Below are positions 21,894 to 63,339 of a stretch of DNA of 64,000 nucleotides, piece by piece. The notes beneath the pieces were generated by a model, which saw nothing but the letters and a program-made list of their open reading frames with translations, had not been told where the DNA came from and did no database searches. Where the stretch lies: positions 160,001-224,000 of IMG/VR virus record IMGVR_UViG_3300045988_170943; one strand, 5' to 3'. The stretch comes from a virus. The position numbers and the translations under genes were made by a program. The number at the start of each line of letters is the position of its first letter. Positions within the stretch are counted from its first letter, which is position 1.

Positions 21894-21906
21894 GGTGAGC
21901 GGGGCC

Positions 21907-22422
21907 ATGACTACCAGCAGGTACCAGTATACGAAAGCGGCCTTGACTGGGCACAGGGTTTTCAACTTGAGCGAGACGCAGCGACGAAACATGGATGCTG
22001 GGCTGCCGCTCGTTGTGAGAACGTTGGCCCGCTGGTACGGCACTACTACCCTGATCTCTGGCATGGCACTGGGTGCTGACATGATCTGGGCTCACCTGGC
22101 GGTCTCACACGGCCTGGACCTGCACGCTTATGTGCCATTCACGGGTCAGGAGGCCAAGTGGACGCACACGGATCAGGCAGCCTACCATGAGTTGCTGAGT
22201 CAAGCGGCCATGGTGCGCGTGTTCGGCCAGTCGTACTCGAACCACCTTTACCATGTGCGTAATGAGGCGATGCTGGCGGACTGTGACCTGATGGTGGCAG
22301 CATGGTGCCCGAGCAAGAAGAGGGGTGGTACGGCGTCCACTGTCCGCAAGGCCAGAGAGTCCGGCAAACCTCTGCTGGTCCTGGATCTGGACTCAGGTGA
22401 GGTGAACTGGTTCCAGAAGTGA
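21907..22422 (+). CDS. DprA/Smf-like Rossmann-fold (SLOG superfamily) protein
   Basis: GMALGADMIWAHLAVSHGL and GGTASTVRKARESGKPLLVL resemble the DprA/Smf Rossmann core. 171 aa. Confidence 0.5.
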   Translation: MTTSRYQYTKAALTGHRVFNLSETQRRNMDAGLPLVVRTLARWYGTTTLISGMALGADMIWAHLAVSHGLDLHAYVPFTGQEAKWTHTDQAAYHELLSQAAMVRVFGQSYSNHLYHVRNEAMLADCDLMVAAWCPSKKRGGTASTVRKARESGKPLLVLDLDSGEVNWFQK

Positions 22423-26354: not shown

Positions 26355-27656
26355 ATGGCAGGCGCAACGAAATACCACATCGCACCGCAAGGGCCGATGT
26401 TCTGTGAGGCCGAGATCCGGGAGTGCCCATACGCCCAAGCGGGCGGCAAACACTACGGAACCTTCGAGAAGGCCCAGCAGGTGTGGCGTGAGCAGATGGT
26501 AGAGAAGTTCGGGGAACTGGACACCCAAGGAACAAACCCCGAGCAACGCAGAACAGCCGCCGAAGCCATGCTGGACATACTGGAAAGAGACCACGACTTC
26601 CAAAAGAGGATGATCCAGTACAGGAACCGTGAGGCTGTAATCGCGTCCCTGAAGAAGAAGATAGCCGACGGAGGAGATCAGAAAGCCTTACAGCAGATGA
26701 AGGCGATTCACAACATGCCTCCCGTGCCGCCACCCCCCGGCAACCTTGACCTTTCCGTACTGCCCCCTCCGCCTCCGGCACAGCAGGGCAAGTCTCAGGA
26801 CGCAGCAGTAGAACAAGCACCAGGGGTACCGCCTACACACACAGAAGGAGCCCCCTTAGAAACACAGCCTGGGGCACTGCCCTTTCCTGATCATGCGCTC
26901 ACCCTGGACGGCCACCCGCTTCCCCCTCCGCCTCCTGGGAACCAGATGCCGCCACAGCAAGAGCACCTAGCAGAGCAGCCACCGAGAATCCCGGTCATGG
27001 TTGGTGACGGTGCTGGTGTTGGCCGTAAGCCTCCGCTGCGAGAACGTTTCAGAGGCATGTTCAAGGGAATCCGCATAGCAGCCATGGGGCGGGTACGTCG
27101 TCTTGGTAACTCTCAGGGTGACCGTCTTAGCCGCCACCAGGTGTCTACGATGAGTGATACTAGAGCCAGGCGACCACTAACGCCCGCACAGGTACGCAGA
27201 CAGCGACGCATGGATGCTTTCGCGCGCGGTGCAGCCCAGAAGGCAGTCGCGGCAGAAAAGGCCATCAAAGACGCCTACAACACTCCCGGGAAGACAGTCT
27301 ACAAGAGACCTGCCGCCGTGCAGATAGGGGACGTGGACCTCAGGTACGGTAAGGTGGTAGGGGTCATTCAGCAGAGTTTCGGAAACAGGGTTATCCAGTT
27401 CCAGAGGGGTGACAACAGCACCGTTGCGCTTAGACTGAACCACGATCACACGTTACACATTCAGGGTGAGTCCAAGAGGGAAAGAGTGGAACGTAGCCCT
27501 ATCTTCCGTGGCGCGAAGCGGGCCTACAAGGAGGTTCATTGGATTCTGACTGCCCCGCCGCCCCGCTACGACAAGTATGATGAGGCGTGGCGGAACACCT
27601 CATCTTCAAGGGCTCACCAGCAGAACGGGCGTCGATCAGTAGCGCACGAATCCTGA
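26355..27656 (+). CDS. hypothetical protein with a proline-rich central linker
   Basis: 433 aa. N-terminal Cys-containing segment (MFCEAEIRECPY). PPPP-rich middle. Basic C-terminal domain. Confidence 0.5.
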   Translation: MAGATKYHIAPQGPMFCEAEIRECPYAQAGGKHYGTFEKAQQVWREQMVEKFGELDTQGTNPEQRRTAAEAMLDILERDHDFQKRMIQYRNREAVIASLKKKIADGGDQKALQQMKAIHNMPPVPPPPGNLDLSVLPPPPPAQQGKSQDAAVEQAPGVPPTHTEGAPLETQPGALPFPDHALTLDGHPLPPPPPGNQMPPQQEHLAEQPPRIPVMVGDGAGVGRKPPLRERFRGMFKGIRIAAMGRVRRLGNSQGDRLSRHQVSTMSDTRARRPLTPAQVRRQRRMDAFARGAAQKAVAAEKAIKDAYNTPGKTVYKRPAAVQIGDVDLRYGKVVGVIQQSFGNRVIQFQRGDNSTVALRLNHDHTLHIQGESKRERVERSPIFRGAKRAYKEVHWILTAPPPRYDKYDEAWRNTSSSRAHQQNGRRSVAHES

Positions 27657-30800: not shown

Positions 30801-31905
30801 TTTCACAATGCCGGATGTGGAGGATTACTCGTACACGGACCGCCTGGGCATGGAGGCTGACATGGTGGGCCTGTACCTGTCTGGCCACCCGATGGATCAC
30901 GCCGACCTGTCCCCGTTCGGTGCCACCCCTTTGAAGGCTGTGGCGTCAGCGGCCAGCGGGTTCGGTTCTGGGACTGCAAGAGTGGTGGCGGCCGTGTCTG
31001 GCATCGAGATGAGGACAACTGGGCGGGGGAAGATGTGCACCCTGCATCTTGATGACGGTGACGGGTTCCTGTCTGTACGCCTGTCCCCTAAGGTGATTTC
31101 AGGGGTGGAGAAGTTCGAGGCAATGGAGGACATTAAGACCCGGTTCTGTAAGGGTGAGATGGAGGTGCCTAAGTCTACGGTCGGCAAAGCGTTGAAAGAT
31201 GTGCCTGTGGTGGAGACGATCAGGCAGAACATGGTTTATGTGATGGATGTCACCTACCGTAAGTTGTTCGGTGGCGGACAAGTGAGTGTGTGGGTTGATA
31301 GCATCCGGCCGGTGACGTTCACCCGTGACGGTGGCTTGCCGGTCAGGGTACGTATCAACGTTGACCGGCTTGGTGTGGAGCGGGCGAGGAAGGCGTATGT
31401 TGCGATTCCGCGCATTCTGGCGGAGAAAGCCCCCGGCAGTACCCCTATTATGATCGCCCACTACCGGCCGGGTGATGGTGTGGCAACATCCGAGGAGGAC
31501 AGGTGCCGGTATGCTCTGGAGGTCATGAGGCGCGAGAAGGTGACTGATGGTAGCGCTGACGACACTCACAAGAGCAAGAAGAAGAGCGGCCGCAACGGTG
31601 CGGGGGGCGGTGGCGGTAAAACGCCCTCACTGCTCGGTGACGACAACGGTCATGATGAAAGCGAGACCGAGCCCCGCGTGAAGGATCGGGTTGGTAGGCA
31701 GTGGCCCACAGAGGTTCCGGCTGAGTTCATCAAGGATAGTGAGGCGAGCGTGGAGGACATGAGATCGTTCGCGGACGCCTTGGAGTACAGGGACACTGGC
31801 CTCACCGTCGCCCCGAGTACGGATGCCAGCAGGATCCTGGAGAAGTATCTGGGGCACGAGAACTATGACTTCGGCATGTATGTGCCGGTAGTTACCTACT
31901 CCTGA
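27883..31905 (+). CDS. dnaE: DNA polymerase III alpha (DnaE-type C-family polymerase) lacking the N-terminal PHP domain and interrupted by two inteins
   Basis: The ORF starts (GTG 27883 or ATG 27892) right after in-frame stops at 27850 and 27868. The N-terminus aligns to the palm region of E. coli DnaE at about residue 380 (PDIDSDFS). Conserved HACGVIIS, KMDFLGL, ARPGP, YQEQIMQLAQ, RKAMGKKK and FNK...SHSVAYA motifs. OB-fold and a G-rich C-terminal tail. Confidence 0.85.
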   Translation: MFTMSKVTKRVVGMEIISPGSPPDIDSDFSTVSKDRAYDYVSDLYGHDNVSHIVTFNTLGAKSAFKRMCTIYSVPFSQANRIAGMMPEGVEGHKITFNDIYDEKSDYYEDAADFRAATSGSEWLPIITGARSIANKVQGTGVHACGVIISNKPLTDTIPLMVDSKDGKVTTQWSYQECEALGLIKMDFLGLDTVDLIQHTVQFIQRSGKEPPNMTEIIHGKMDDEDTYRLFQHGETIGVFQFGSEMVRGLLKHMKPTEFNDLAACTAVARPGPMGMNSHTMYADRKNNLAPVEPIHPDFVGSPLEEILGGTYGLCVPAGTLIEDSTTGRRVPIESFREGHCTPSWNPDTGSVVHSPVFKVIHTGMQDVVKVRTWDGWKTTVGVDHEMLTPSGFVKAGELTTHDSVGVISQGRLRWDRVTALEAAGVVDCYDLDVDDTHTYLVDGFVTHNCVYQEQIMQLAQRIAGMSLQEGDKLRKAMGKKKADVMAKMKPRFIQGGVDNGYSEEAMNKLWDILEPFAKYAFNKCLHGNTEVLISQNTKTTVKDLYRRFKNGEKNIKILSMFESGDLHFHNISEIVQTGEKPLWTVETESGKTISITENHRMLTTDGYQTIKNGGIRVGSELVNDKYWNNRFRTVQRRPAPRRGWSHKSSSYRKVKNISFSSDVDKALVENYLIVRGAIFETNKIISSPNEEILGAADFFVNGTYFEMDGKGLGRQYLIDNKYGTVPFVYLTPENYRDEIDAALMGHHKSSGDKVVSITPPEVLEDGSVLREMTYDITMSDDGPANFIANGLVSHNSHSVAYAMNAYQAAYLKTHYPVEFMSALVAQTISDRDKTLNNLREARRMGLAIGTVDINLSEVRMAPDYSGESPFEILYGISGVKSVSEDTARLIVAERERGGRFTSVYDAATRCVAAGVNNKTVLVNLALAGAFDGLEPNRRRVVEAIPALLSVGRDESSKGMSLLAALDVPGEDIFTMPDVEDYSYTDRLGMEADMVGLYLSGHPMDHADLSPFGATPLKAVASAASGFGSGTARVVAAVSGIEMRTTGRGKMCTLHLDDGDGFLSVRLSPKVISGVEKFEAMEDIKTRFCKGEMEVPKSTVGKALKDVPVVETIRQNMVYVMDVTYRKLFGGGQVSVWVDSIRPVTFTRDGGLPVRVRINVDRLGVERARKAYVAIPRILAEKAPGSTPIMIAHYRPGDGVATSEEDRCRYALEVMRREKVTDGSADDTHKSKKKSGRNGAGGGGGKTPSLLGDDNGHDESETEPRVKDRVGRQWPTEVPAEFIKDSEASVEDMRSFADALEYRDTGLTVAPSTDASRILEKYLGHENYDFGMYVPVVTYS
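28825..29229 (+). other. intein 1 (135-aa mini-intein) within dnaE
   Basis: Inserted between extein ...GGTYGL and CVYQEQIMQ. Begins CVPAGTLIED and ends FVTHN, followed by Cys+1. In frame. No endonuclease domain. Confidence 0.7.
29455..30270 (+). other. intein 2 (272 aa) within dnaE at FNK/SHS, with a low-GC central insert
   Basis: Inserted between extein ...AKYAFNK and SHSVAYAMNAYQ. Begins CLHGNTEVL and ends LVSHN, followed by Ser+1. 29455..29900 is conspicuously AT-rich relative to the gene. Confidence 0.65.
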
Positions 31906-35394: not shown

Positions 35395-36870
35395 TCACAG
35401 TGAGTTGATGAAGTCGTCGCCGGTCTCCATGGGAGAGGATCCGCCTCCTGATGTGGGGGCCTGGCCACTGATGATCATTGAGGCGGTCTGCACCTGACGC
35501 TTGTGGTAGGCTTCCTTGGCTGCCTCAATGTCCGCCTCGGCCTTTCTGATCCTAGCGAAGGACTCGGCGCGTTTCTGGATGCCAGCCTCCTGCTGCTTGC
35601 CCAGGGTGTCGTATACCTTCTGGAGGCTGGCGGAGATGTTGTCAATCGTACTCAGGTCGATCAGGGTTGCGCTGTTGATTTCGGCGGCCGACTCGGCCAT
35701 GGAGGCGGTCTGCTGGAAGGCGTTGGAAATCAGTTTGTTGATGTCCTGAATAATAGCCTGATTGGTTTTCGCGGAACGCTCATTATCAAGAGCCAACTGC
35801 CAGTTCACCAACTGGTGGCGGGCGGCCGGGATGGCATGCTTACGGATCATCTGACACGTTTCCAGCGTCTTCAGGCTTGTGTTGATGATCGTGGTGGAAG
35901 ACTCGATGTTCATTCGAGACAGGAAGAACTGCTGCCTCCAAGACAGCCAAGTGCGTTGAATCTCACCCAGGGCCTCAGCGTACTTCTGGTAGTAGACGCG
36001 GAACTCTTGAACCGTGTAGTACTTCCCGTCAAAGATGACTGGGGCTCCGTCGCCGTTCACCTCAGCCGCGTCCTTGATTGCACGGATCCTTTCGGCCCGC
36101 TCACTGGCGATGTTGACGACCTCCTCCAAGGCGGCGAGAACCTTCACCATATCACGCATGGTTTCTACAGTGGTCTCACGCATCAACTTGCCTCGGACAG
36201 CATTCTCGTGGAGGCGAGTCTCAGTGTCCTTCAACTTGCTGACGGCCTCCTCCATCTTCTCTGAGATGTTCATGGCGTCAATTTGCATGTCACGGCGGCG
36301 GGCCTCGAAGCGTTCCTTGCTGTCGCGGGCCTTGTTCTTCATAGCCTGGAGGAACTGGGCTATCTTACCGGGATCGTTGTACTTGTGCTGGAAGCCGTCT
36401 AGTTCGCGGATGATGTTCTTCATGATGGACTCGGCTTCGGGCACGGAGATGTCCTTCTGCTCCTCCAGTAGCCGCTTGGAGAGGGTGTCTAGTTTCTCCA
36501 TGACCTGGCGGCCGAACTCGATCCGGTAGGCGTCATCATTGATCATCATGTCGGCGATGCTGGGGGCTTTTGCCTTGATCTTCTGCTGTTGGTCCACGGG
36601 CAGGGAACCGAGGAAATTGTCTGCTGCATGTAGTTTGTTGCTGGAGGAGTTCGCGCCTTCTGGGTTCAGGGAGCCGACGACAGGTTGTGGCTTATCTGCC
36701 TTCTGTTCCTGCTGAGCCTTCATGGCCTCAACCTCAGGGTCCTTCACCTCAACGATTGTCGGTGCAGCCTCAGGCTCGTCGTCCTGGGGGATAACAATGT
36801 CATCGAAGTCCAGTGCCGCTAGTGCCGGGTCACTAGAGATGTCTGTGTTAAAGTCCGTGCTTGTGCTCAT
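35395..36870 (-). CDS. TelA-like (toxic anion resistance / YaaN-like) coiled-coil protein
   Basis: The N-terminal region LPVDQQQKIKAKAPSIADMMINDDAYRIEFGRQVMEKLDTLSKRLL follows the TelA/YaaN signature (L..eEqkKv.el...I...D..a...YG..aQ..i..fSd..L). Long coiled coil. Confidence 0.5.
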   Translation of the reverse strand: MSTSTDFNTDISSDPALAALDFDDIVIPQDDEPEAAPTIVEVKDPEVEAMKAQQEQKADKPQPVVGSLNPEGANSSSNKLHAADNFLGSLPVDQQQKIKAKAPSIADMMINDDAYRIEFGRQVMEKLDTLSKRLLEEQKDISVPEAESIMKNIIRELDGFQHKYNDPGKIAQFLQAMKNKARDSKERFEARRRDMQIDAMNISEKMEEAVSKLKDTETRLHENAVRGKLMRETTVETMRDMVKVLAALEEVVNIASERAERIRAIKDAAEVNGDGAPVIFDGKYYTVQEFRVYYQKYAEALGEIQRTWLSWRQQFFLSRMNIESSTTIINTSLKTLETCQMIRKHAIPAARHQLVNWQLALDNERSAKTNQAIIQDINKLISNAFQQTASMAESAAEINSATLIDLSTIDNISASLQKVYDTLGKQQEAGIQKRAESFARIRKAEADIEAAKEAYHKRQVQTASMIISGQAPTSGGGSSPMETGDDFINSL

Positions 36871-41040: not shown

Positions 41041-42570
41041 GTGAGGTTCTACGATACAGTGACTAGGTACAGGTTCGCCACTGATAATGGGGTTGACGTG
41101 GAGCAGGTCAGTCGTGATCTGACCCGGATGGTTACTTGGATGGCTCAGTCGGAGCGGGAGGTGCTTGCCAGTTCAGAGTTTCACGACCTGGCAGTGAAAG
41201 TTCTACGGGGTGGCAGGCCGACCGGTTCTCTGAACTCCTGGGGTCGTAAACGCCTTAGTCGTTACGACTTTGAGTTTCAGAAACACAACATGAATGAGAT
41301 GCTGGTCTCAAACGTGGTGAGTACTCTGGAACTGTACACCATGAGTGTCGGCCTGTTTCAGGTGATGAGCACTCATTCTAAGGAGACCAGGCCAGAGAGA
41401 ATCCTCTCTTATTACAGGGGCACTTATCCTGGTGCTCCGCAGCCGACTAGCGGCATGGTTCGTGCTCACTTGAGGCGCTACCACCTTAAAGGAGACAGGA
41501 AGGCGTCACTTCCTGGAGTTAGTGCCAAATTGAACCTGGCGGTATGCGATACCTACTTTGCTCCTAAGGCGTTTAGAGGTGATAGTGATCCACTAGACGT
41601 TGTTGTTCAGGTGAAGATACCCAGTCACGGCCTCACAAAACTCTACTTTAGGCTTCCAGATAATGAGTTACGTTTTAGCGAAGGCAAGGTTTGCCGCCCA
41701 ACCATCCGCCTGAACAACAAAGGCCAGGTTGTCTTTGACCTCGCTATCGAGCACGAAGCGCAGCAGCGAGACACGAACAAGGTCGTTGGCGTTGATTTGG
41801 GTAAGGTCGAGCCTTTTGTCGCTACAGTCATTGACCCTAGGGCGAAGCACAGGTCTACTCCGTATCACGCTAACTATAAGAGACGGCTTGGATCGCTAGT
41901 CAAGAAAGAACAGCAGCGTCGCACTTTAGCCACTCATCTGTACGAGCGAGCGAATCTCTGCGAGAAGCACAGTCGAGATCAGCACGCTCTGGTTCTCAGG
42001 ACTGAGGCGAAGCGCGTCAGTGCCAAGGCCACTCGTATCAAGCATGAGATTAGCCAGTGCATCGCCAGTCAGATCGTCTCTGTGGCTGACAAGAATAATG
42101 CTCATGTTTCTCTGGAGAACCTGTCCTGGCTGGACGCCAAGGGCGGTCGCTGGCCTCACGCCGAGATACAGCACAGGATCGAAAGCACCGCTAAGCGTTA
42201 TGGCCTGAAGGTAGTCAGGGTGAGCGCCAAGGACACCTCTAGGACCTGCTCTCGTTGCGGCGGCAAGGTATCCAACAACGCGAAGAGCAGGGTCGGTACC
42301 TGTAGCGTCTGCGGTTTCTCACTGAATCGTGATGTGAGTGCCAGTCGTGAGATTGCCTTGCGTGCTGTCTCGAACGCGAGAAACCGTGATAGGATGCGTT
42401 CTCTGCTTCGCCAGAGGGCGCTAGAGCGAAGTTCGACTGTTACGCGACAGTCGAAACCGGTCACTGCCCTGAGTGGAATCCAGGGACACACCGGTACCTC
42501 CAACAATCGTTTGGAGGCGACGCTGATGATGGTGAGAGAGAATCTAGACTCTAGAGGATCCCCAACCTAG
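41041..42570 (+). CDS. tnpB: solo TnpB (IS605/IS607 OrfB family), paralog of the TnpB at 8459
   Basis: 509 aa. Shares NEMLxxxVxxxxExxxxSxGLFQVM, GVDLGKVEPFVATVID and the C-terminal zinc finger CSRCGGKVSNNAKSRVGTCSVCGFSLNRDVSASREIALRA with the first TnpB. No tnpA adjacent. Confidence 0.85.
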   Translation: MRFYDTVTRYRFATDNGVDVEQVSRDLTRMVTWMAQSEREVLASSEFHDLAVKVLRGGRPTGSLNSWGRKRLSRYDFEFQKHNMNEMLVSNVVSTLELYTMSVGLFQVMSTHSKETRPERILSYYRGTYPGAPQPTSGMVRAHLRRYHLKGDRKASLPGVSAKLNLAVCDTYFAPKAFRGDSDPLDVVVQVKIPSHGLTKLYFRLPDNELRFSEGKVCRPTIRLNNKGQVVFDLAIEHEAQQRDTNKVVGVDLGKVEPFVATVIDPRAKHRSTPYHANYKRRLGSLVKKEQQRRTLATHLYERANLCEKHSRDQHALVLRTEAKRVSAKATRIKHEISQCIASQIVSVADKNNAHVSLENLSWLDAKGGRWPHAEIQHRIESTAKRYGLKVVRVSAKDTSRTCSRCGGKVSNNAKSRVGTCSVCGFSLNRDVSASREIALRAVSNARNRDRMRSLLRQRALERSSTVTRQSKPVTALSGIQGHTGTSNNRLEATLMMVRENLDSRGSPT

Positions 42571-54343: not shown

Positions 54344-55546
54344 GTGAGTAACAGCAAACGACTCATCATGTGTCACGGACTGCCCGGCTCGGGTAAGTCC
54401 ACGTGGGCTGCCCGCTATGTCGAGGCTAATCCTGGAACGGTTATCGTCAACAAGGACGTGCTGCGCACTGAGGTCGCGGGCGAGAACTACCACCGGGCGG
54501 GGCACGATCCGAGAGTGGAGAAGCGAGTCGCCCAGTTGCAGCGTGAGCGCCTGGAGGCCGCTTTCACTGACCCCAATGTGCTTGTTGTGGTCAGTGATGA
54601 CACGAACCTGGACGCAAAGGATGTGAAGCGCGTGTGGGACCTGGCTGAGGCCCATGGGGTGCAGGTTGAGCACAAGTACCTGGATGTGCCTGTCAGCGTG
54701 TGCAAGGAACGCAACCGCGCTCGTGCGACTGCCGGTGGGCGCCTTGTCCCAGAGAACATGATTGACGCCATGGCCGTGAAGGGCTACGACGAGCCGATCC
54801 ACCTGTTCGGTGACGACGGAGTAGTTGAGCCGGGCCACATCAAGCACTTCATTCGTGATGAGCGCAATGGTCAGGTGATGGCGGTGTCGCACATTCATCA
54901 GGGGAGTGTGGACCTGGATGCGTTCAATCAGGCTGCCGCACTTGCCTACCCGATCCGTGGGCGCTCGGTTGTGATACTGGATGCTGACGGCACCCTATTC
55001 AACAACAAGGACGACTCTAGGCGGTTTCTGAATCGTAGTCGCCCTGACTTCCCTGGGTTCTACCGGTCCATTGCGAACGCCTCAGTGAACCAGAAGGTGT
55101 TGCGGCTGGTTCAGGAGATGCGAGACTGTGACGGCCTGAACATTATCCTGGTGACGGGCCGGTCGAACGACTACGCCAGGGCCTTGATTGACGCCGTGTC
55201 CAGGTCTGGCGCCCCAGTGTCCAGGGTGATCATGAAGCGTGCTGGTGATGCCAGGCCATCTAGTGTCCACAAGGAGGAGGCCCTGAGGTCACTGCGGGGT
55301 GAGGGCCTGGTTGTGGTGCATGCTGTGGATGACCGGGGTAAGGACATCGCCATGTTTGAGCGTAACGGGGTCATGGTGTCCAGGGTTGCTGAGCCGGACA
55401 CTGACGGTGTGGAGCCGGATGTGGACACCATGTATGGTTCTGGAAGGTGTATCCGTTGCGGTCGGCCTTTGTCAGGTGGTGGCAGTATTGGGAGGACCTG
55501 CCGCACAAAGATGGATTCATGGTGGCAGATTGTGACTGGACAGTAA
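54344..55546 (+). CDS. polynucleotide kinase-phosphatase (T4 Pnk-like: N-terminal P-loop kinase + C-terminal HAD phosphatase) with a C-terminal zinc ribbon
   Basis: GTG start after GAAGAAGGA. P-loop MCHGLPGSGKSTWA. HAD motif I VVILDADGTLFNN (DxDGT). IILVTGR (motif II). CIRCGRPL...CRTK. Confidence 0.7.
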   Translation: MSNSKRLIMCHGLPGSGKSTWAARYVEANPGTVIVNKDVLRTEVAGENYHRAGHDPRVEKRVAQLQRERLEAAFTDPNVLVVVSDDTNLDAKDVKRVWDLAEAHGVQVEHKYLDVPVSVCKERNRARATAGGRLVPENMIDAMAVKGYDEPIHLFGDDGVVEPGHIKHFIRDERNGQVMAVSHIHQGSVDLDAFNQAAALAYPIRGRSVVILDADGTLFNNKDDSRRFLNRSRPDFPGFYRSIANASVNQKVLRLVQEMRDCDGLNIILVTGRSNDYARALIDAVSRSGAPVSRVIMKRAGDARPSSVHKEEALRSLRGEGLVVVHAVDDRGKDIAMFERNGVMVSRVAEPDTDGVEPDVDTMYGSGRCIRCGRPLSGGGSIGRTCRTKMDSWWQIVTGQ

Positions 55547-55630: not shown

Positions 55631-56785
55631 CTACTCAATGACGACTGTGCTCGTGTCCTTAGGGCGGTCGTGGACGTCCCATCCTTCAAACCCAATAGTG
55701 ACATGGTAGTCATATTTCGGCAGGCCAAGTGACTCACGGATCTGGTCGGCCTGTGGGCACGTGGCGACAACATACCATGTCTCCTTCGCGCGACTCCCCC
55801 TCCCTCTGCTGATGGTTCCGATGCCGCCGAGAGTGAAGTCCAAGTCGTGACCCCTGAACGCCTCACGCACCTTGTCAAGTCCGACCTGCTGCATCTCTGA
55901 TGGCCTGACAACAGTGATGTGGCGGCCGCTGTCTCGGTCACGACGGACCCGGTTGTCCGCTAGACGTTTGGCGTTCTCTTCACCGACGTACCGAGCCCAT
56001 GCTTTCAGCCTGGATTCCATGGCCTCATCCGGGAGGGCGACTGATGCGTACTGACCTCCGACATTCATCTCCACTGGTAGGGCGCCTGTCTGTGTCGCGT
56101 TGGGGCCACTGACCTGCTGTTGCGGGAAGTCATCGTAGTCATAGGATCTGCTCTCGTGGTCGAGGACGATTGCCTGTCTGGCAAAACCGTTCAGGGATTC
56201 GTCATCATCTAGCAGCGTGCGCATGATGTCCAGGTTGCTTCCAGCGTCCATGATGTTTGCGTCGCCACCGTAGAATTTCTTGACCTCATCGGCCGTGTGC
56301 ACCCCGTATGCATCCAGGTAGACGCCCGGCTGCCTGGTGGTGACCATGACGTGCGCGATCTGGCTGGTGTCACCAGGGTTGGCCTCCAGGTGTGCATCCA
56401 GCCTGTCACTGGTATCTAGGTCATAGGTGACGAACACGGGACGCCTGGTTGGGTCCTTCCTGATGATGGCTGCCGCGAGGTCCCCACATAGCCCGTTGGC
56501 GAGCGCGTACCGGTTCCTGGGGTCGGCAAGATCTCCGTCACGCATCCTCATTGTGCCCCACAGGCTGGTCGGGACATCCACGAACCTACCTGCCCCACTG
56601 ATACCGCCCGTGGTCGGGGTATGATCAATGGTCTGTGTGAGGTCAGTGCGGAGACCTCTCCTTTTGAGGTCGTTGTACTGGCGAGCCTCTTCCATGGAGG
56701 TGAACTGGGGACCGAACGGACATCGCCCCAGTTTCGCCTCGCACGGGCCGGAGACCCCTTGGGTATTGGTGTGGATGAGTGTCAT
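55631..56785 (-). CDS. protein with a C-terminal 2H phosphoesterase (LigT/CPDase-like) domain and an uncharacterised N-terminal domain
   Basis: Two H-x-T-x motifs, RHITVVRP and YHVTIGF, about 75 aa apart at the C-terminus. Convergent with the Pnk-like gene. Confidence 0.55.
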   Translation of the reverse strand: MTLIHTNTQGVSGPCEAKLGRCPFGPQFTSMEEARQYNDLKRRGLRTDLTQTIDHTPTTGGISGAGRFVDVPTSLWGTMRMRDGDLADPRNRYALANGLCGDLAAAIIRKDPTRRPVFVTYDLDTSDRLDAHLEANPGDTSQIAHVMVTTRQPGVYLDAYGVHTADEVKKFYGGDANIMDAGSNLDIMRTLLDDDESLNGFARQAIVLDHESRSYDYDDFPQQQVSGPNATQTGALPVEMNVGGQYASVALPDEAMESRLKAWARYVGEENAKRLADNRVRRDRDSGRHITVVRPSEMQQVGLDKVREAFRGHDLDFTLGGIGTISRGRGSRAKETWYVVATCPQADQIRESLGLPKYDYHVTIGFEGWDVHDRPKDTSTVVIE

Positions 56786-56939: not shown

Positions 56940-57650
56940 TTGTTGAACATTCACCTCAGCGATATTTTGTACGATTCACATAATTTTCAGAATGGAGAAG
57001 GAACATTGTCCCAGCAGGACCAGATGCCGGAAGAGGATAGTTTGGCAGATGGCGACACCATTGATAATGTCACCACTGTTGACCTGACAGAGGGGGAGAT
57101 TAGGGAAAGGGCCAATGACCTTCTCAGTATGGCCCAGCAGTTGCACGACCAGTACATCACGAACGCCAAGCGTGAAGCGTCAGTCACAGTGAAGTCGGCA
57201 CAGACTGAGGCTGATTACATGCTCCGGGAGGCCGAGATGAAGGCTGAGCGTATCGTCAACGAGGCTCGGGCGGATGCTGAACGTATCCTGGACAATTTGG
57301 AGACGCGCAAACAGGCCCTTCTGGGGGATGTCGCAAAACTCCAGACGTTCGAGTCTCAGTATCGGAGCAGGTTACTGGCTCTGGTATCTGAGGCTGCTGA
57401 GACACTGGAGGTGGATGCGCTTATTGACAACGACAATGGGGTCGAAGACGGCGGTGGCAATTCTGCTGCTGACTCACCCGTAGCGAAGGACCTGCCAGAC
57501 GGGGAGGATGTTTCGGAGACCGTGCCTCTTGGGGGCGCCCTAAGCGAGATGGACGTGCCTCCTGTCGCCGACTATGTGTCTGCTGACAGTGACTCCGTAG
57601 AGGACGAGGCGGACGGTTCGACGGCAGGTGGTGTTCTCATGGTGGAGTAG
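56940..57650 (+). CDS. DivIVA/Wag31 C-terminal coiled-coil-like protein lacking the canonical N-terminal DivIVA domain
   Basis: LSMAQQLHDQYITNAKREAS...ADAERILDNLETRKQALLGDVAKLQTFESQYRSRLLALVSEAAETLE parallels the C-terminal half of actinobacterial Wag31. The start position is uncertain. Confidence 0.4.
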   Translation: MLNIHLSDILYDSHNFQNGEGTLSQQDQMPEEDSLADGDTIDNVTTVDLTEGEIRERANDLLSMAQQLHDQYITNAKREASVTVKSAQTEADYMLREAEMKAERIVNEARADAERILDNLETRKQALLGDVAKLQTFESQYRSRLLALVSEAAETLEVDALIDNDNGVEDGGGNSAADSPVAKDLPDGEDVSETVPLGGALSEMDVPPVADYVSADSDSVEDEADGSTAGGVLMVE

Positions 57651-57726
57651 TGTTGGCTTTTGTTGGTATTCCGGGGTTCAGAATGGTTCCTGAGCCCCGG
57701 TTTTCTTGCTCCTGGAGGGTTAGGGG

Positions 57727-57755
57727 TTTCAATGTTCGTGTTGTGCTGATATAAT
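57727..57755 (+). promoter_or_regulatory. promoter of the NAD salvage operon (extended -10 TGATATAAT)
   Basis: TGATATAAT at 57747..57755 with a weak -35-like TTTCAA at about 57727. Confidence 0.45.
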
Positions 57756-57766
57756 AGATGCAAGAG

Positions 57767-57787
57767 TAAAGGTCAAAGTGACCTTTA
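57767..57787. promoter_or_regulatory. perfect palindromic operator TAAAGGTCA-AAG-TGACCTTTA, candidate NrtR binding site
   Basis: Perfect 9-bp arms separated by 3 nt, positioned 12 nt downstream of the -10 and 35 nt upstream of pncB. The Nudix-type regulator gene nrtR is in the same operon. Confidence 0.5.
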
Positions 57788-57821
57788 CTGGTTCGGGTGA
57801 GATAACGACAGGAAGACAACT

Positions 57822-59126
57822 ATGGAGACTACCGCTTTCCTCACAGACAAGTACGAAGTGACGATGCTCCAAGCCATGCTTCGTGCTGGCCGGGCGGACC
57901 ACAGAGCAGTCTTTGACCTGTTCGCCCGCCGCCTGCCTAAGGGTCGCCGGTACGGGGTCGTTGGTGGAGTCGGCCGCGTCGTCAAGGCGGTCAAGAACTT
58001 CAGGTTCACAAATGAGCAGATCGCCTACCTTGAGGCCGACCCGATCATTGATGAGGCGACAGTCAGATACCTCCGCGACTACAAGTTCCGCGGCATCATC
58101 GTCGGCCAGCCGGAAGGATCCCTGTACTTCCCGAACACCCCCATTCTCACGGTTATTGGCACGTTCGTTGACTGTGTGCTGCTGGAGACGCTGCTGCTGT
58201 CCATCATGAACCACGACAGTGCGGTCATGTCTGCTGCCAGCCGAATGGTGACCGCCGCCGAGGGTATACCCATGATCGAGATGGGATCCAGGCGCACCAG
58301 TGAGACCAGCGCCGTCGCCGCAACCAGGGCCGCCTATATCGCTGGGTTCAATGCGACCAGCAACCTTCAGGCCGGGCACCTGTACCAGATCCCCACGACC
58401 GGGACCAGCGCCCACGCCTACACGCTCGCTTATGGGCCGGACGGTGAGGAGCAGTCCTTCTACGACCAGATGGTAGCGCTCGGCACAGGCACCACGATCC
58501 TGGTTGACACCTACAACATTCCTGAGGGTATCCGGCGAGCCGTCCACGCCGCCAACGCCCTGGGTGCCAGCGGGCCAGGAGGGATCCGCATCGACTCTGG
58601 TGACCTGCATGAGGAGGCCGTCAATGCCAGGACGCTACTAGACTCCTTGGGGGCTATAGACACGAAGATCGTGCTCTCATCTGACATCGACGAGTACACG
58701 ATCTCAGAGATGAAGGAGCGTGGAACACCGGTTGACGCTGTGGGGGCGGGCACTAGGGTTGTCACTGGCTCTGGTGCCCCGACGGCGGAGATGGTGTACA
58801 AGTTGGTGCAGATCAACGATACGCCGGTGTCGAAGCGGGCTGAGGGGAAGGTCTCTACTGGTGGTATCAAGGTCACCTACCGTGAGTTCCATGAGGATGG
58901 GACCATGGCTGGTGAGTTCTTCAAGGTCGGGGCCACTAGCGCCCCGTTCACCAGTGGACAGCACCCCACCCAGGTTCTTCTTGTGGATGGGCAGAGCGGC
59001 TACTTTCACCAGGAGGACATTGAGGTGTCTCGGGCTCGTCACAAGGAGCAGGTTGCGTACCTGCCTGAGAGTGCGCGCCTGATCCTCGCTGGTGATGCCG
59101 CGTTCACCGCTCAGCAGGCAGACTGA
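57822..59126 (+). CDS. pncB: nicotinate phosphoribosyltransferase
   Basis: 434 aa with the NAPRTase family layout. Conserved N-terminal YEVTMLQAMLRAG. Central and C-terminal PRTase barrel motifs. Confidence 0.8.
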   Translation: METTAFLTDKYEVTMLQAMLRAGRADHRAVFDLFARRLPKGRRYGVVGGVGRVVKAVKNFRFTNEQIAYLEADPIIDEATVRYLRDYKFRGIIVGQPEGSLYFPNTPILTVIGTFVDCVLLETLLLSIMNHDSAVMSAASRMVTAAEGIPMIEMGSRRTSETSAVAATRAAYIAGFNATSNLQAGHLYQIPTTGTSAHAYTLAYGPDGEEQSFYDQMVALGTGTTILVDTYNIPEGIRRAVHAANALGASGPGGIRIDSGDLHEEAVNARTLLDSLGAIDTKIVLSSDIDEYTISEMKERGTPVDAVGAGTRVVTGSGAPTAEMVYKLVQINDTPVSKRAEGKVSTGGIKVTYREFHEDGTMAGEFFKVGATSAPFTSGQHPTQVLLVDGQSGYFHQEDIEVSRARHKEQVAYLPESARLILAGDAAFTAQQAD

Positions 59127-59167
59127 CACACCCCAACCCATAGGATCTGAGAAAAAGAGGTGCAGTT

Positions 59168-60679
59168 ATGAAGGTAGCAGTAGGACAGATCAACCCGCTC
59201 ACTGGGGACTGGGATGGCAACGCGGACAGGATTATTGCTGCTGCCAGCAGTATAGATCAGGCGTGGTTCCGTGGCAGCGAGCCGGTTCTTGTGCTCCCAA
59301 GGTTCGCTCTATCTGGCACAGGGTTGGGTGACATGACTGGTAGTCCTGACATGGTGAAGGGTATGCGGGCCGCTGAGACGAAGATTGCCGTCAGCGTGCC
59401 CGCGTGGTTGACAGTTGTCTATGGGACTGTGAGCCCGCTGGGTGTTGAAGAGGTCATTGTGGCCCGTGCGGGGGTGGTGAAGCGTCTGGCGGGTGATGGA
59501 ACATCGAATCTGGTGTCACTGGGTGAGGACTGGGTTCAGATCGTTCTGGAGGGGAAGGGGGTCAACTACAAGGATGTGACAGAGGAGAACCTTATTGTTC
59601 TGGCTGCTGATCCTTACACGCCTGATGCCATTGGGGAGCGTGTGAAACGGGTGGATGATCTCATGTGGGCGACCTGGTGCCGTAATGCTGTCTATGTGAA
59701 TCTTGTGGGTGGTCAGGATGAACTTGTCTATGATGGTATGTCCCTGATTATGGACCGTAATGGGGCGGTCGTGGATCATCTGCCGCGTTTTGAGGAGGAG
59801 GTCAGGTTTGTGGACACTGACGCCTTGGTTGCGGGTAGACGCTGCGATCTGGCCCGTGATGAGGTTGCTGACACGTACCGGGCTATCGTCCTGGGTGTTC
59901 GGGACTATGCTCGACGTAACCAGATGGGGAAGGTGGTGCTTGGTGCTTCTGGTGGTATCGACAGCGCCTTGGTTCTGACGATTGCTGCTGACGCCATTGG
60001 GGCGGAGAATGTGATCGGTATCTCTATGCCTAGCGAGTATTCTTCCCAGCACTCCCAGGATGATGCGGAGGAGTTGATGCGCCGTTTGGAGGGTGAGTTC
60101 CGTAAGGTGCCTATCGCCCCGATGGTTGACGTCTTCCAGGATGCGCTCGCACTGGACGGGGTTGCTGAGGAGAACCTTCAGGCTCGTGTGCGTGGCGTCA
60201 TTGTGATGGGGGTTGCAAACACGGAGAACGCCCTGCTGCTAGAGCCTGGTAACGCCTCAGAAGCGGCCGTGGGGTATGCGACGATCTATGGTGACACGGT
60301 TGGGGGTTACGCTCCAATCAGTGACGTGTACAAGACGGATGTGTACCGGCTGGCGGCCTGGAGGAATACGCTCCCTGACTCGCCAATCCCTGAGTCAACG
60401 ATGATGAAGGCCCCAAGTGCGGAACTGCGCCCTGGGCAGGTGGACTCTGACTCTCTGCCGGACTATGAGGTACTGGATGCTGTACTGCGGGACATGTTTG
60501 AGGGCGGGCTGGAGTTTGACCGTGACGCCTTGTACGCCCACCATGATAAGGATGTGGTTGACTTGGTGCTGTGGAAGGTGCGTACCGCTGAGTGGAAACG
60601 TCGCCAGACAGCGTTCGGCCCTAGAGTGTCATCGTACTCGTTCGCCCACGACCGGCGAGTACCAGTGAGTCGAGCGTGA
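59168..60679 (+). CDS. nadE: NAD+ synthetase (NadE) with a degenerate N-terminal nitrilase-like domain
   Basis: PP-loop VVLGASGGIDSALV. NadE C-terminal motifs (AVGYATIYGD, YKTDVYRLAAW). The about 235-aa N-terminal CN-hydrolase-like domain lacks an obvious Glu-Lys-Cys triad. Confidence 0.75.
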   Translation: MKVAVGQINPLTGDWDGNADRIIAAASSIDQAWFRGSEPVLVLPRFALSGTGLGDMTGSPDMVKGMRAAETKIAVSVPAWLTVVYGTVSPLGVEEVIVARAGVVKRLAGDGTSNLVSLGEDWVQIVLEGKGVNYKDVTEENLIVLAADPYTPDAIGERVKRVDDLMWATWCRNAVYVNLVGGQDELVYDGMSLIMDRNGAVVDHLPRFEEEVRFVDTDALVAGRRCDLARDEVADTYRAIVLGVRDYARRNQMGKVVLGASGGIDSALVLTIAADAIGAENVIGISMPSEYSSQHSQDDAEELMRRLEGEFRKVPIAPMVDVFQDALALDGVAEENLQARVRGVIVMGVANTENALLLEPGNASEAAVGYATIYGDTVGGYAPISDVYKTDVYRLAAWRNTLPDSPIPESTMMKAPSAELRPGQVDSDSLPDYEVLDAVLRDMFEGGLEFDRDALYAHHDKDVVDLVLWKVRTAEWKRRQTAFGPRVSSYSFAHDRRVPVSRA

Positions 60680-60789
60680 GTGCCATGGAACCTATAAAAC
60701 CAGCAAAAGCGACCACATGGCAGAAACCAGTGAAAGGCCCTGGGGAGACAACACCTGGGCAGAGAATCTACAACAAGGGAGACGAGCAC

Positions 60790-61416
60790 ATGAGTGTACA
60801 GAACAGCAGGAAGACCGGGCGAGCACTGATCGTCGTTGACGTCCAGAACGACTTCGTGGAGGGCGGTGCGCTCGCCGTCACCGGAGGCAATGACCTGGCG
60901 GCACGTATCGCCGTCCTCTTGAAGGACCCAGATTTCATGGGACGCTACGATCAGATCATCCTCACCCGCGACTGGCACATCGACCCCGGCAGCCACTTCT
61001 CTGACTCCCCAGACTACGTTAAATCCTGGCCTGTTCACTGCGTCGCCGGGACACCTGGGGCAGCCTTCGTTGACCCTCTTGAGCAGGCCCGCCACGGCAT
61101 CAAGGTCACCATTGTAGACAAGGGTATGTTTGACGACGCCTACTCCGGGTTTCAGGGCATCACCTCTTTCAGTACGCCACTGGCAGGGTTCCTTCGTAGC
61201 AGGGGCGTCAAGGCTGTGGATGTTGTGGGTATCGCCACTGACTACTGCGTGAAAGCAACCGCCCTGGACGCAGCGCGCGAGGGGTTCGACACCACTGTCA
61301 TCGCCAGCCTGTGTGTTGGCATCAACCCGGACAGCATCACACAGGCCCTAAAGGTGGACCTGCCAGCCGCCGGAGTGAACGTCACGGACACCATTCCAAC
61401 TGAGGGCGCGGTATGA
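60790..61416 (+). CDS. pncA: nicotinamidase/pyrazinamidase (isochorismatase family)
   Basis: ALIVVDVQNDFVEGGALAV signature. Start at MSVQN after AGGGAG. Stop overlaps the nrtR frame. Confidence 0.75.
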   Translation: MSVQNSRKTGRALIVVDVQNDFVEGGALAVTGGNDLAARIAVLLKDPDFMGRYDQIILTRDWHIDPGSHFSDSPDYVKSWPVHCVAGTPGAAFVDPLEQARHGIKVTIVDKGMFDDAYSGFQGITSFSTPLAGFLRSRGVKAVDVVGIATDYCVKATALDAAREGFDTTVIASLCVGINPDSITQALKVDLPAAGVNVTDTIPTEGAV

Positions 61417-61472
61417 CAGGATCCCAGCCAGTGGTGTACAATCAGAACAGGCCAACAGCAGAAGGATCACAC

Positions 61473-62240
61473 ATGAGTAACCTTGACTACGAGCAGGCAG
61501 ATACGGAAGAGGAGTTCCTGAAGGAATACGACCTCAAGAACTTCCCCAGCGTGGGTTTAACGGTGGACCTTCTCATCTTCACTATCCGTGACGGACGACT
61601 GTCCCTGCTGCTCATCCGCCGTGGGGCCCACCCAGAGAAGGGTAAGTGGGCTCTACCAGGCGGGTTCGTGAATACCACAGAATCGTTGGATGAGGCGGCA
61701 GCCCGCGAACTCACGGAAGAGACAGGCCTGGAGATGGCTGGGTACCTGGAGCAGTTACGCACCTATGGGTACCCTGGGCGTGACAAGAGGGGTTTCATCG
61801 CCTCCACCGCATATGTGGCCCTCGTCCCAAATGCCAGCACTCCGCACGCTGGCGACGACGCGGCAGATGCCCACTTCTTCGCTGTCGAGGATGTTCTGGG
61901 TGACGAGGATGGTGTGGAGTTCGATCTCGCGTTTGATCACCGCGACATCATAGTGGATGGCCTGGAGCGGGTGCGCGCAAAGATCGAGTACGCGCCCGTT
62001 GCACACAAGTTCCTCTCTGGGGAGACGTTCACTATCCCAGAGATCCGTAAGGTGTACGAGATCATCTGGGGGCGGGAACTGAACGCCTCGAACTTCCGGC
62101 GTAAGATGCTGTCTACACCAGGTCTGCTGGAGTCGGTGGGTGAGAAGAACCGGGATAACCCATGGCGTCCCTCTCACCTGTATCGGGCCGGTGAGGCGAC
62201 CGAGATCTTCCCGCCTCTTCAACGTAACCGCATCAAGTGA
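61473..62240 (+). CDS. nrtR: NrtR-type Nudix-related transcriptional regulator (Nudix domain + C-terminal winged helix)
   Basis: Intact Nudix box GGFVNTTESLDEAAARELTEETGL (Gx5Ex7REUxEExGU). C-terminal region typical of NrtR (TFTIPEIRKVYEIIWGRELNASNFRRKM). Confidence 0.65.
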   Translation: MSNLDYEQADTEEEFLKEYDLKNFPSVGLTVDLLIFTIRDGRLSLLLIRRGAHPEKGKWALPGGFVNTTESLDEAAARELTEETGLEMAGYLEQLRTYGYPGRDKRGFIASTAYVALVPNASTPHAGDDAADAHFFAVEDVLGDEDGVEFDLAFDHRDIIVDGLERVRAKIEYAPVAHKFLSGETFTIPEIRKVYEIIWGRELNASNFRRKMLSTPGLLESVGEKNRDNPWRPSHLYRAGEATEIFPPLQRNRIK

Positions 62241-62577
62241 TCTGAGAGGCCATAGCGAGTACAGAATCGGGTGGGCCGCATTGGTAGCATCATCTACTAC
62301 CAATGCGGCCCACTTTCCGTTGTCCTGTTACTCCACCCACACCTGGACCTTATCAACATCTGTGGATAAACCTGTGGACGGTTTCATGTAAGGTGTCCGT
62401 CACCAGTAGACACACTCAGGCACAGGAATAGTTCGAGGAGCGCTGTTCACCTGATGCGGTAGTAGTGGCCTACATTCACATGATCGCGCATGGCACTCAC
62501 CGCGAGTCCCAGAGACGACACCGCTGACTCCGCAACCAGAGCCCCCATTGTAAATGCCCAGATGAAGTCAGTCACAG

Positions 62578-63339
62578 TCACGACCCGCTCACCTCGTTCC
62601 TCATTATCTCGGCCATGTGTTCCAGGATCAGCCCCACCGGCCCTGTCACCTCATCCTCATCATTGCGGACAACCAGGTCGAAACAGTGATCATCCAGGGC
62701 TGTCTCGGAGGCATGTGACTGCATGTGGTGGTAGTACCAAGGCGGTGCTGGTGGCTGCCCTGGACGGTCCCTGGCGTCGAGGCGGGCGTTACGGACGTGA
62801 ATGTCCGCCTCGATACGAACTAGTGTCCCGCTGTTGTTCCTGATGTAGGCGGCCTCGTCTGGGAAGCGCACGTCGGTCACCACCACTGAGTCCCCGCCAG
62901 TCATGATTCTGTCTACCTCTTGGGCCAGCAGGTCGATCCAGTATGACGGGTTGCTGGCTTTGCGGACGTTCGTGCCCCAGTATTGGAATGCTTCACGTCG
63001 CCTAGATGTCTTCTCCCCGTTCAAGACCATCTCTCGCCCGTTCTCCAGTACGTCCAGGAAGATGGTGTCTGCGATGTGTGTCGCCTCGTCCTGTGTGCAT
63101 CCTGTGGCTGCCATGATGTCCTTGGCTGCGTCGCCTGGGTCGAAGTCGTGCTGGTCCATGATCTGAATCAGATGGGAGACCTCGTTCTTGAGTCCTGCCG
63201 CGAAAGATACTGTGGCGGTGCTGGTCTTATGGGGTAGACGTGGTGCCAGGTGTGTGGCCACTGTGTCCTTACCGGCTGCCATCTTTCCAGACAGTCCGAT
63301 CAGGACAGGGGTCTTCTCTTGTGTGGGGGTGTCTGTCAT
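62578..63339 (-). CDS. deoxynucleoside monophosphate kinase, phage T4 gp1-like
   Basis: Start at MTDTPTQ. P-loop VLIGLSGKMAAGKDTVA (compare T4 LIFLSGVKRSGKDTTA). Co-linear matches further on (REAFQYWGTNV, YWIDLLAQEV, VVTDVRFPDE, LVVRNDEDE). Confidence 0.65.
   Translation of the reverse strand: MTDTPTQEKTPVLIGLSGKMAAGKDTVATHLAPRLPHKTSTATVSFAAGLKNEVSHLIQIMDQHDFDPGDAAKDIMAATGCTQDEATHIADTIFLDVLENGREMVLNGEKTSRRREAFQYWGTNVRKASNPSYWIDLLAQEVDRIMTGGDSVVVTDVRFPDEAAYIRNNSGTLVRIEADIHVRNARLDARDRPGQPPAPPWYYHHMQSHASETALDDHCFDLVVRNDEDEVTGPVGLILEHMAEIMRNEVSGS

Follow-up and report, generated by a model that had tools for sequence, protein, structure and literature searches.

A predicted NrtR-controlled NAD+ salvage operon on a huge phage-like element

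Regulons of NrtR that take in pncA, pncB and nadE are a classical feature of bacteria (Rodionov et al., 2008, PMC2330246). The published NrtR sites are 21-bp palindromes with a GT-N7-AC core (PMC2330246), ADP-ribose is a ligand of NrtR (PMC2330246; PMC6800001), and the Mycobacterium smegmatis regulator carries three substitutions in its Nudix motif and shows no detectable activity (PMC6800001). Phage synthesis of nicotinamide adenine dinucleotide (NAD+) is also already known, from KVP40 NadV and NatV, from NARP1 to NARP3 and from the jumbo-phage 'NAD-salvage islands' (PMC13573597 for the islands), and the NARP pathways have been shown to counter NADase defences. In the cultured Bacillus phage G (NC_023719, 497 kb), a Nudix protein (gp273), an isochorismatase (gp275), a nicotinate phosphoribosyltransferase (NaPRTase, gp277), NadD (gp281) and NadE (gp283) are annotated. 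In this study, we analyzed a 64,000-nucleotide stretch (hereafter the window) of the IMG/VR virus record IMGVR_UViG_3300045988_170943, covering positions 160,001 to 224,000 of that record, which encodes PncB, NadE, PncA and an NrtR-type regulator behind a palindromic promoter element.

Our analyses suggested that the locus is best explained as an accessory NAD+ salvage operon under the control of its own NrtR, carried by a huge phage of about 415-420 kb, and we consider this explanation as a whole to be likely. The region 57671..62313 is read as one terminator-bounded transcription unit comprising a promoter, the palindrome and four genes:

57671..57700, plus strand: intrinsic-terminator-like hairpin with an 11-pair stem (8 G-C pairs) followed by TTTTCTTGCT; it closes the upstream DivIVA-like gene and marks the 5' boundary
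57747..57755, plus strand: extended -10 element TGATATAAT; the -35 element is weak (TTTCAA, 3/6)
57767..57787, no strand assigned: predicted NrtR-type operator TAAAGGTCAAAGTGACCTTTA, 21 bp, at about +5 to +25 of the predicted transcript
57822..59126, plus strand: pncB, nicotinate phosphoribosyltransferase, type II, 434 aa
59168..60679, plus strand: nadE, two-domain NAD+ synthetase, 503 aa, with a nitrilase-like N-terminal domain that lacks the catalytic triad
60790..61416, plus strand: pncA, nicotinamidase, 208 aa from an ATG supported by a Shine-Dalgarno sequence; the longest open reading frame (ORF) starts at GTG 60676
61413..61442, plus strand: sigma-70-like site ATGACA-18-TACAAT in the pncA-nrtR gap, identified solely by its match to the consensus
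61473..62240, plus strand: nrtR, Nudix and winged-helix transcription factor, 255 aa; the longest ORF starts at 61413
62271..62313, plus strand: hairpin with a 17-bp stem and a 9-nt loop followed by TTTCCGTT, between the convergent nrtR and dNMP kinase genes, read directly from the sequence

The last hairpin begins 30 nt past the nrtR stop codon and is the probable 3' end of the operon. AGGAAG precedes the pncB ATG at 57822, AAGGGAG lies 9 nt before the pncA ATG at 60790, and AGAAGGA precedes the nrtR ATG at 61473; the 208-aa PncA product was called in eight other assemblies, and the listed full-length members of the 90% cluster of NrtR are all 255 aa. These Shine-Dalgarno-supported starts, together with the calls of other gene callers, give intergenic gaps of 41, 110 and 56 nt, so the overlapping stop and start codons that the original prediction described throughout the operon hold for the longest ORFs and not for the likely starts. 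A separate nrtR promoter at 61413..61442, independent of the repressed main promoter, is speculative.

The palindrome TAAAGGTCA-AAG-TGACCTTTA occupies 57767..57787, and its arms reach 10 bp when 57766 and 57788 are counted. With its start 11 nt past the -10 hexamer and 34 nt between its end and the pncB ATG, it occupies a position where a bound repressor would block the promoter, as had been proposed. A search of the window for a wider regulon found no further copy. When related genomes were scanned for the palindrome upstream of NAD genes, a box of the same shape, 21 bp long, was present in the NAD-cluster (pncB/pncA/nrtR) promoters of 10 of the 10 distinct related elements fetched. Nine of these elements encode an NrtR 63-76% identical to that of the window and one (L028) an NrtR 48% identical, with GC contents from 34 to 64%. 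The boxes are as follows, with collected loci designated by L numbers:

Window: TAAAGGTCAAAGTGACCTTTA, before pncB
L019 (contig of 363 kb; locus GC 54%): TAAAGGTCATAGTGACCTTAA, before pncB
L024, L025 and L027 (IMG/VR, 197-398 kb, GC 50%): TAAACATCAGAGTGATGTTAA, before pncB
L024, L025 and L027, second, weaker box: TTATAGTCAAAGTGATTGCAA, before pncA
L185: TAAAACTCAATGTGAGTATTA, before pncB
L188 (671 kb): TTGGTATCATAGTGATATCTA, before pncB
L187 (682 kb): TAAGTATCAAGTTGATATTTA, ahead of small ORFs that lead to pncB
L022 (728 kb): TAAGTATCAACTTGATATTTA, likewise ahead of small ORFs that lead to pncB
L022, second box: TAATAATCAGTTTGACTTTTA, ahead of HAD_SAK, which leads on to pncA
L186: TAAGTATCAATTTGATTTTTA, before pncA
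L026 (345 kb): TAATAATCATATTGATTCTTA, before nrtR
L028 (GC 64%): TATAAGTCAGAATGACTTGAC, before pncB

The clade consensus is TAAnnnTCAnnnTGAnnnTTA, with invariant alignment columns at TCA..TGA, and changes in one arm are mirrored in the other (GG..CC becomes CA..TG in L024). The exact TAAnnnTCAnnnTGAnnnTTA pattern occurred four times in the 104 loci collected, every time in a NAD cluster, and 12 of the 25 palindromes with a TCA/TGA core and at least 8/9 arm matches in about 2.2 Mb of collected sequence came from NAD clusters. In the window box, G6 T7 and A15 C16 form the GT-N7-AC core of the published sites, while the relatives are invariant only at T7/A15 plus C8 A9/T13 G14. The distance from the -10 hexamer to the box is exactly 11 nt in the window, L019 and L024, where the linker and the untranslated leader have diverged; L019 keeps the same -10 element TGATATAAT, and L024 has TTGACA-17-TAAGAT. 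Furthermore, TCGTCA-N3-TGACGA boxes stand upstream of nrtR in high-GC relatives of about 47-48% identity. As a conserved promoter box that fits the published type of NrtR site, the palindrome is very probably the NrtR operator.

The identities that the original prediction had assigned to all four proteins were borne out by matches to Pfam, NCBIfam and PDB entries. PncB scored above two curated cut-offs for NaPRTase equivalogs, with 536.8 bits against 531 for NF006698 and 399.8 bits against 297.4 for TIGR01513, and matched PF17767 (2.7e-30) and the Enterococcus faecalis NaPRTase 2f7f (2e-59). Its match to the PHROG Nampt family was weak (1.1e-10), and the NCBIfam thresholds spoke against an assignment as a Nampt- or Namat-like enzyme, which was rejected. 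PncA aligned with Mycobacterium tuberculosis PncA 3pl1 (3.2e-52), including the catalytic residues (the Asp of VDVQNDF, the Lys of KG and the Cys of ATDYCV) and the conserved metal-binding Asp/His cluster (DWHIDPGSHF..HCV); it scored below the cut-off of NF008623 (105.6 against 174 bits).

The synthetase domain of NadE is well conserved (PF02540, 1.4e-59; TIGR00552, 162 bits, cut-off 63.65), with an intact SGGIDS P-loop. Alignment with two-domain enzymes of Micrococcales and Streptomyces upheld the earlier view that its nitrilase-like N-terminal domain has no Glu-Lys-Cys triad: Arg stands in place of the catalytic Glu of FPE (giving PRF), and both the Lys-bearing KHHLPNYGVFDE segment and the Cys-bearing ICEDIW segment are deleted. 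The two closest phage NadE homologues, P0122 and P0123, show the same loss of Glu, Lys and Cys. The isolated N-domain scored 17.7 bits against Pfam CN_hydrolase (cut-off 23.2), and the whole protein fell below the two-domain equivalog NF010588 (421.5 bits, cut-off 479). An AlphaFold2 model (pLDDT 85.5) matched Streptomyces avermitilis 3n05 over its full length in Foldseek (TM 0.83, 588 columns), and the N-domain by itself matched stand-alone nitrilase-family amidases. As judged from the alignment and the predicted model, the N-domain keeps the nitrilase fold and has lost the glutaminase chemistry; the enzyme is probably ammonia-dependent, and the retained domain probably serves assembly. We found no description of such a dead-glutaminase NadE in the literature searched, and the NadE classification paper PMC3376133, in which the words 'degenerate' and 'inactive' do not occur, apparently does not describe this form. 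In addition, a second group of two-domain NadE proteins on metagenomic contigs (P0126-P0136, about 505-512 aa, 43-44% identical to the window NadE) keeps the catalytic Glu and has lost the Lys and Cys segments, a pattern which indicates that loss of the glutaminase site in a retained N-domain is recurrent.

The operon resides on a huge phage-like element, as had been suspected, and not on a core chromosome. The 90% clusters of the window NrtR and NadE occur on very many contigs, the longest of which repeatedly measure 393-424 kb in independent assemblies, well above the 200 kb used to define jumbo or huge phages. Contigs of about 410-424 kb carry the same proteins, and examples near 415 kb are ENA ERZ28666825 (ZHAN15-1_SAMEA2738092 scaffold_3, 416,421 bp) and ERZ21615932 (NODE_1, 411,538 bp). 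The window itself was located within a 122.9 kb Logan contig. Viral contigs from IMG/VR among the relatives span 197-398 kb and metagenome contigs reach about 727-728 kb, so that the relatives as a whole range from 197 to 727 kb; every NrtR homologue at 63-76% identity was on a large metagenomic or IMG/VR contig. Synteny is kept across all relatives, and the neighbouring genes are of phage type (RNA ligase, ribonucleotide reductase, Mom-like, SMC-like and NT5C genes). The window has the look of a region for replication and nucleotide metabolism, and the identity of the element as a huge phage is well supported but not proven.

Several observations weigh against the reading of the locus as a phage salvage operon under its own regulator. 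First, the nicotinamide-to-NAD+ route needs PncA, PncB, NadD and NadE, and a search of the window, the part of the ~415 kb genome that was covered, and of the regions flanking the operon in close relatives recovered no NaMN (nicotinate mononucleotide) adenylyltransferase (NadD, NadM or NadR). Phage G NadD used as a tblastn query gave no match in the window, L001 or L019-L027; it did match L028 and several cellular loci, which means that the search was able to detect NadD. Moreover, none of the 36 window ORFs scanned had a CTP_transf-type (cytidylyltransferase) Pfam domain, and PRPS-like, NMNAT, PnuC and NadR proteins had no match in the window. The phage genes found thus cannot make NAD+ alone, and neither the 'complete' salvage operon announced in the original prediction nor the full Preiss-Handler route that it raised as a possibility held up; the element would depend on the host for the NadD step, unless a NadD gene lies elsewhere in the phage genome. 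Second, the Corynebacterium glutamicum NrtR (NdnR) is reported, as cited in PMC6800001, to respond to NAD+ and not to ADP-ribose, which makes the effector of the phage NrtR less than certain. Third, perfect inverted repeats with 9-bp arms and a spacer of 0-6 nt are no more frequent in the window than expected by chance (2 distinct, against a mean of 2.5 in 30 first-order Markov simulations of the 64-kb window), so the palindrome draws its significance from position and conservation. Fourth, no capsid, portal or terminase gene was detected by PHROGs and Pfam among the ORFs scanned in the 64-kb window, and the viral status rests on IMG/VR inclusion, gene content and genome size. Fifth, a TnpB ORF interrupts pncB in L027, one of the IMG/VR relatives, which shows that this element at least can do without the operon.

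In the proposed working of the operon, a single transcript would run from the extended -10 promoter through pncB, nadE, pncA and nrtR to the strong hairpin, and an NrtR dimer on the 21-bp box just 3' of the -10 element would repress its own operon. By analogy with characterised NrtR proteins (PMC2330246; PMC6800001), ADP-ribose would release NrtR from the DNA; since ADP-ribose is a cleavage product of NAD+, the operon would switch on during NAD+ breakdown. PncA would then convert the released nicotinamide into nicotinate, and PncB would convert nicotinate into NaMN. Host NadD, to which this step is assigned because the operon is without such a gene, would form nicotinate adenine dinucleotide (NaAD), and phage NadE would turn NaAD into NAD+ with free ammonia, since its glutaminase site is gone. 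We infer that the operon restores NAD+ in infection, whether the pool is drained by host NADase defences or by phage demand.

A strong competitor for the purpose of the operon, with a probability somewhat short of even, is that of a general metabolic booster, which would supply the NAD+ needed to replicate a very large genome and to run phage enzymes that consume it, such as those of RNA repair and ligation, with NrtR providing homeostatic feedback and no specific link to NADase defence. Jumbo-phage NAD-salvage islands are usually read as auxiliary metabolic genes (PMC13573597), the operon adjoins the RNA-repair genes for PNK, 2H-SAK and HAD_SAK_2, phage G has KptA, an NAD+-consuming RNA 2'-phosphotransferase, inside its NAD cluster, and the disruption of pncB in L027 fits this idea too. 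Nevertheless, a route that starts from nicotinamide and a regulator of the ADP-ribose type match two products of NADase defences, and counter-defence fits at least as well; the two purposes are not mutually exclusive, and the present data separate neither from the other. A more specific version of counter-defence is only tentative when all its parts are taken together. There, NrtR would silence the operon until a host NADase (TIR, SIR2, SEFIR or similar) cleaves NAD+, with ADP-ribose as inducer and nicotinamide as substrate, and the system would be a fourth, inducible type of NAD+ reconstitution; the Nudix site would clear ADP-ribose and reset the switch, and phage and host NrtR may cross-regulate, since similar boxes occur at high-GC, probably actinobacterial, nrtR loci (L111, L114).

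Under the salvage-operon reading NrtR would act as a repressor. The Nudix domain (PF00293, 1.2e-18, 67.8 bits, cut-off 21.1) is followed by the winged helix (PF21906 NrtR_WHD, 1.9e-16, 60.4 bits, cut-off 27), and the protein aligns with both domains of Shewanella oneidensis NrtR 3gz5 over residues 31-259 (1.4e-35). It falls under the cut-off of the NCBIfam equivalog NF050029 (152 against 400 bits), which is narrow and is still its best-scoring model. The Nudix box GFVNTTESLDEAAARELTEETGL fits G-x5-E-x7-REUxEExGU, and G84, E90, R98, E99, E102 and E103 are invariant in 29 homologues, in agreement with the earlier statement that the box is intact; retained ADP-ribose pyrophosphatase activity is plausible from these residues. 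It has to be considered that NrtR is chiefly an enzyme that hydrolyses ADP-ribose or ADP-ribose-derived immune signals, with DNA binding secondary. The invariance of the six signature residues across the clade, the degenerate and inactive boxes of the characterised regulators (M. smegmatis; S. oneidensis with RKLAEKT) and the existence of phage enzymes that degrade ADPR-based signals (PMC13232231) speak for this idea, but the winged helix and its cognate box are conserved clade-wide, which places the DNA-binding function under selection. The two roles can coexist, and a mainly enzymatic NrtR is unlikely. In some relatives, PncA and NrtR are fused in one protein of 445-473 aa with Isochorismatase, NUDIX and NrtR_WHD domains (P0004 at L185 7001-8422; also P0064, P0067 and P0072), which is a direct physical link of the nicotinamide-consuming enzyme with the regulator.

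Instead of serving as a protein operator, the palindrome could form an RNA hairpin in the 5' untranslated region that works as an mRNA stabiliser, processing site or attenuator. The window box would be transcribed and could form an 11-bp stem with a 3-nt loop in a 5' leader with a minimum free energy of -15.3 kcal/mol, and symmetric arm changes are expected of a hairpin as well. However, the z-score of the leader fold is just -1.9, with 8 of 200 shuffles folding equally well, mismatches in the arms are not wobble pairs, and the bases TAA, TCA, TGA and TTA are conserved across GC contents of 34-58%, which pairing does not demand. An Rfam scan of 57500..62700, NAD+ riboswitches included, returned nothing. 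In AT-rich relatives the box lies directly upstream of, or overlaps, an extended -10 element, and in L186, L026 and L022 it is upstream of the -10 element and thus outside the transcript of that promoter, which excludes a purely RNA role; a hairpin in place of an operator is quite improbable. A bound dimer would obstruct RNA polymerase in every one of these arrangements.

Finally, an ordinary actinobacterial chromosomal housekeeping locus, or a misassembled host fragment, would account for the Actinomycetota origin of the nearest named NadE, PncA and NrtR homologues (NadE about 40-53% identity, NrtR 48%), but the phage-type synteny in all relatives, the repeated 393-424 kb contigs in independent assemblies, the relatives in IMG/VR, cellular homologues no more than about 50% identical, and a window without tRNA genes and with no ribosomal-protein or other core-translation gene in Pfam and PHROG scans of its larger ORFs make it very improbable.

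We infer that the host of the huge phage-like element is an actinobacterium. Besides the homologues just named, Gordonia and Rhodococcus phage proteins were closest to one window protein, and one distant relative carries an Amidase_2 plus LGFP protein, a combination which we take to be associated with cell-wall-binding lysins of Actinobacteria. Sample labels (HMPC12, ZHAN15, CHEN22) point to human cohorts; these names suggest human metagenomes as the source habitat, probably oral. No close plasmid relative was present in PLSDB, where the best matches had 65-68% identity at up to 18% query cover and were actinobacterial pncB/pncA genes, and a search of the phage DNA collection gave a single short match at 69%. 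Scanning with NrtR peptide patterns recovered only distant Firmicutes-type NrtR loci among genome contigs (32-50% identity) and only relatives of up to 51% identity among metagenome contigs. Neither scan arrived at the phage clade, which was reached through exact-protein look-ups and IMG/VR. The Actinomyces oris 'plasmid' NZ_CP116225.1 (415,503 bp) is close to the phage-like element in size only by coincidence. It was rejected as a relative: metG, rsmA and rsmI are among its genes, and it was matched solely through the pncA of the host itself. This replicon (L197, 340998-359222) is circular and labelled as a plasmid in PLSDB, and its housekeeping genes give it a content that looks chromosomal.

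The remainder of the window encodes polynucleotide kinase/phosphatase, 2H phosphoesterase, HAD_SAK_2, dNMP kinase, NrdI, DnaE with inteins, a YqaJ/RNase T exonuclease, a DNA methyltransferase, two TnpB ORFs, and ClpB-like, Ser/Thr kinase, PP2C and site-2 protease genes, along with many ORFs without a match. Two sets of genes stood out:

119-2956 (minus strand), 5586-6317, 7024-7707, 9971-11917, 14185-15561 and 35395-36870 (minus strand): host-like signalling and proteostasis genes, comprising a ClpB-like AAA+ protein, a VWA protein, a PP2C phosphatase, a Ser/Thr kinase, an M50 site-2 protease with PDZ, and a TelA-like protein
12094-12765, 21730-22422, 54344-55546 and 55631-56785 (minus strand): RNA-repair and NAD/ADP-ribose-conflict-type genes around the operon, comprising HAD_SAK_2, a YpsA-SLOG protein, polynucleotide kinase/phosphatase and 2H-SAK

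The HAD_SAK_2 gene of AT-rich relatives is located between pncB and pncA (L022 7300-7833; L187 4979-5506); that of L022 lies directly 3' of an NrtR box and may belong to the regulon there. The 1340-aa DnaE-like polymerase (27883-31905) has intein and HINT domains, and since its match starts inside the pol3_alpha NTPase domain, the N-terminal part may come from a separate upstream ORF of 433 aa (26355-27656) without a family match. TnpB (Cas12f1-like_TNB) ORFs are found at 8459-9901 and 41041-42570, and a further copy adjoins the dNMP kinase gene in the contig of another strain (L194 4945-6462). The ORF that divides pncB into two in L027 (3509-5038) encodes 509 aa, the same length as the window TnpB at 41041-42570, and has a Cys-rich zinc-ribbon-like motif; its assignment as TnpB is based on this length and motif. 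Judging from the copies in the window, L194 and L027, TnpB elements seem to move about in the phage population.

Depletion of NAD+ ranks among the main strategies of bacteria against phages, and NARP1-3 have been described as enzyme sets, with no dedicated regulator mentioned in the papers searched. Here, a huge-phage lineage with GC contents of 34-64% and contigs of up to about 727 kb retains a module for making NAD+ from nicotinamide, along with a repressor of the ADP-ribose type and its predicted operator, which suggests that phages can sense NAD+ breakdown and respond to it transcriptionally. The literature searched contained neither a phage-encoded NrtR with an operator nor a phage Preiss-Handler route against defence; the parts are familiar, and the phage-borne repressor-operator pair, predicted from conserved sequence across this lineage, appears to be undescribed. 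The defined DNA motif, in the scan form TAANNNTCANNNTGANNNTTA, could serve to find more such regulons. In addition, the locus provides an instance of a two-domain NAD+ synthetase whose glutaminase domain, although dead, has been retained, and a system in which the dependence of a pathway on one host enzyme, NadD, can be tested.

With the bacterial NrtR regulons (S. oneidensis 3gz5/3gz6, M. smegmatis), the locus shares a repressor of Nudix and winged-helix domains, a 21-bp GT-N7-AC box in the promoters of NAD genes, the linkage of nrtR with pncA, pncB and nadE, and autoregulation, which is predicted here. It differs in its location on a huge phage-like element instead of a chromosome, in its canonical, invariant Nudix box, which is degenerate in the characterised regulators, and in its clade consensus TAAnnnTCAnnnTGAnnnTTA. 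Compared with the glutamine-dependent two-domain NadE enzymes (S. avermitilis 3n05, M. tuberculosis 3dla), the phage NadE has the same architecture, the same fold (TM 0.83 to 3n05) and an intact synthetase P-loop, whereas its Glu-Lys-Cys triad is absent and its N-domain is about 70 residues shorter.

Phage G likewise brings together PncA, PncB, NadE and a protein similar to NrtR (31% identity over both domains) in a single region, but it also has NadD, its NadE is single-domain, and its genes are interspersed with ORFs of unknown function. No operator could be picked for the phage G cluster, as its AT-rich intergenic DNA has too many low-complexity palindromes, and no functional or regulatory study of the cluster was found in the literature searched. 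A KptA-like RNA 2'-phosphotransferase, gp280, lies between PncB and NadD in this cluster (NC_023719.1 200123-207372). Enzymes of the KptA type consume NAD+, and gp280 again links phage NAD supply with RNA repair.

The signature enzyme pairs of NARP1 (Adps and Namat), NARP2 (Nampt and Nmnat) and NARP3 (PnuC and a NadR-like protein) are not those of the operon, whose phosphoribosyltransferase is a NaPRTase by the curated thresholds. The NARP1/2 preprint makes no mention of PncA, PncB, NadE or Preiss-Handler, and in the NARP3 paper PncA, PncB and NadE are absent and 'Preiss-Handler' occurs in one cited title only. The operon resembles all three pathways as a phage means of restoring NAD+ from breakdown products or precursors, and it differs from them in proceeding through deamidated Preiss-Handler intermediates by way of PncA, PncB and NadE, in its dependence on host NadD, and in its predicted possession of a dedicated transcriptional sensor.

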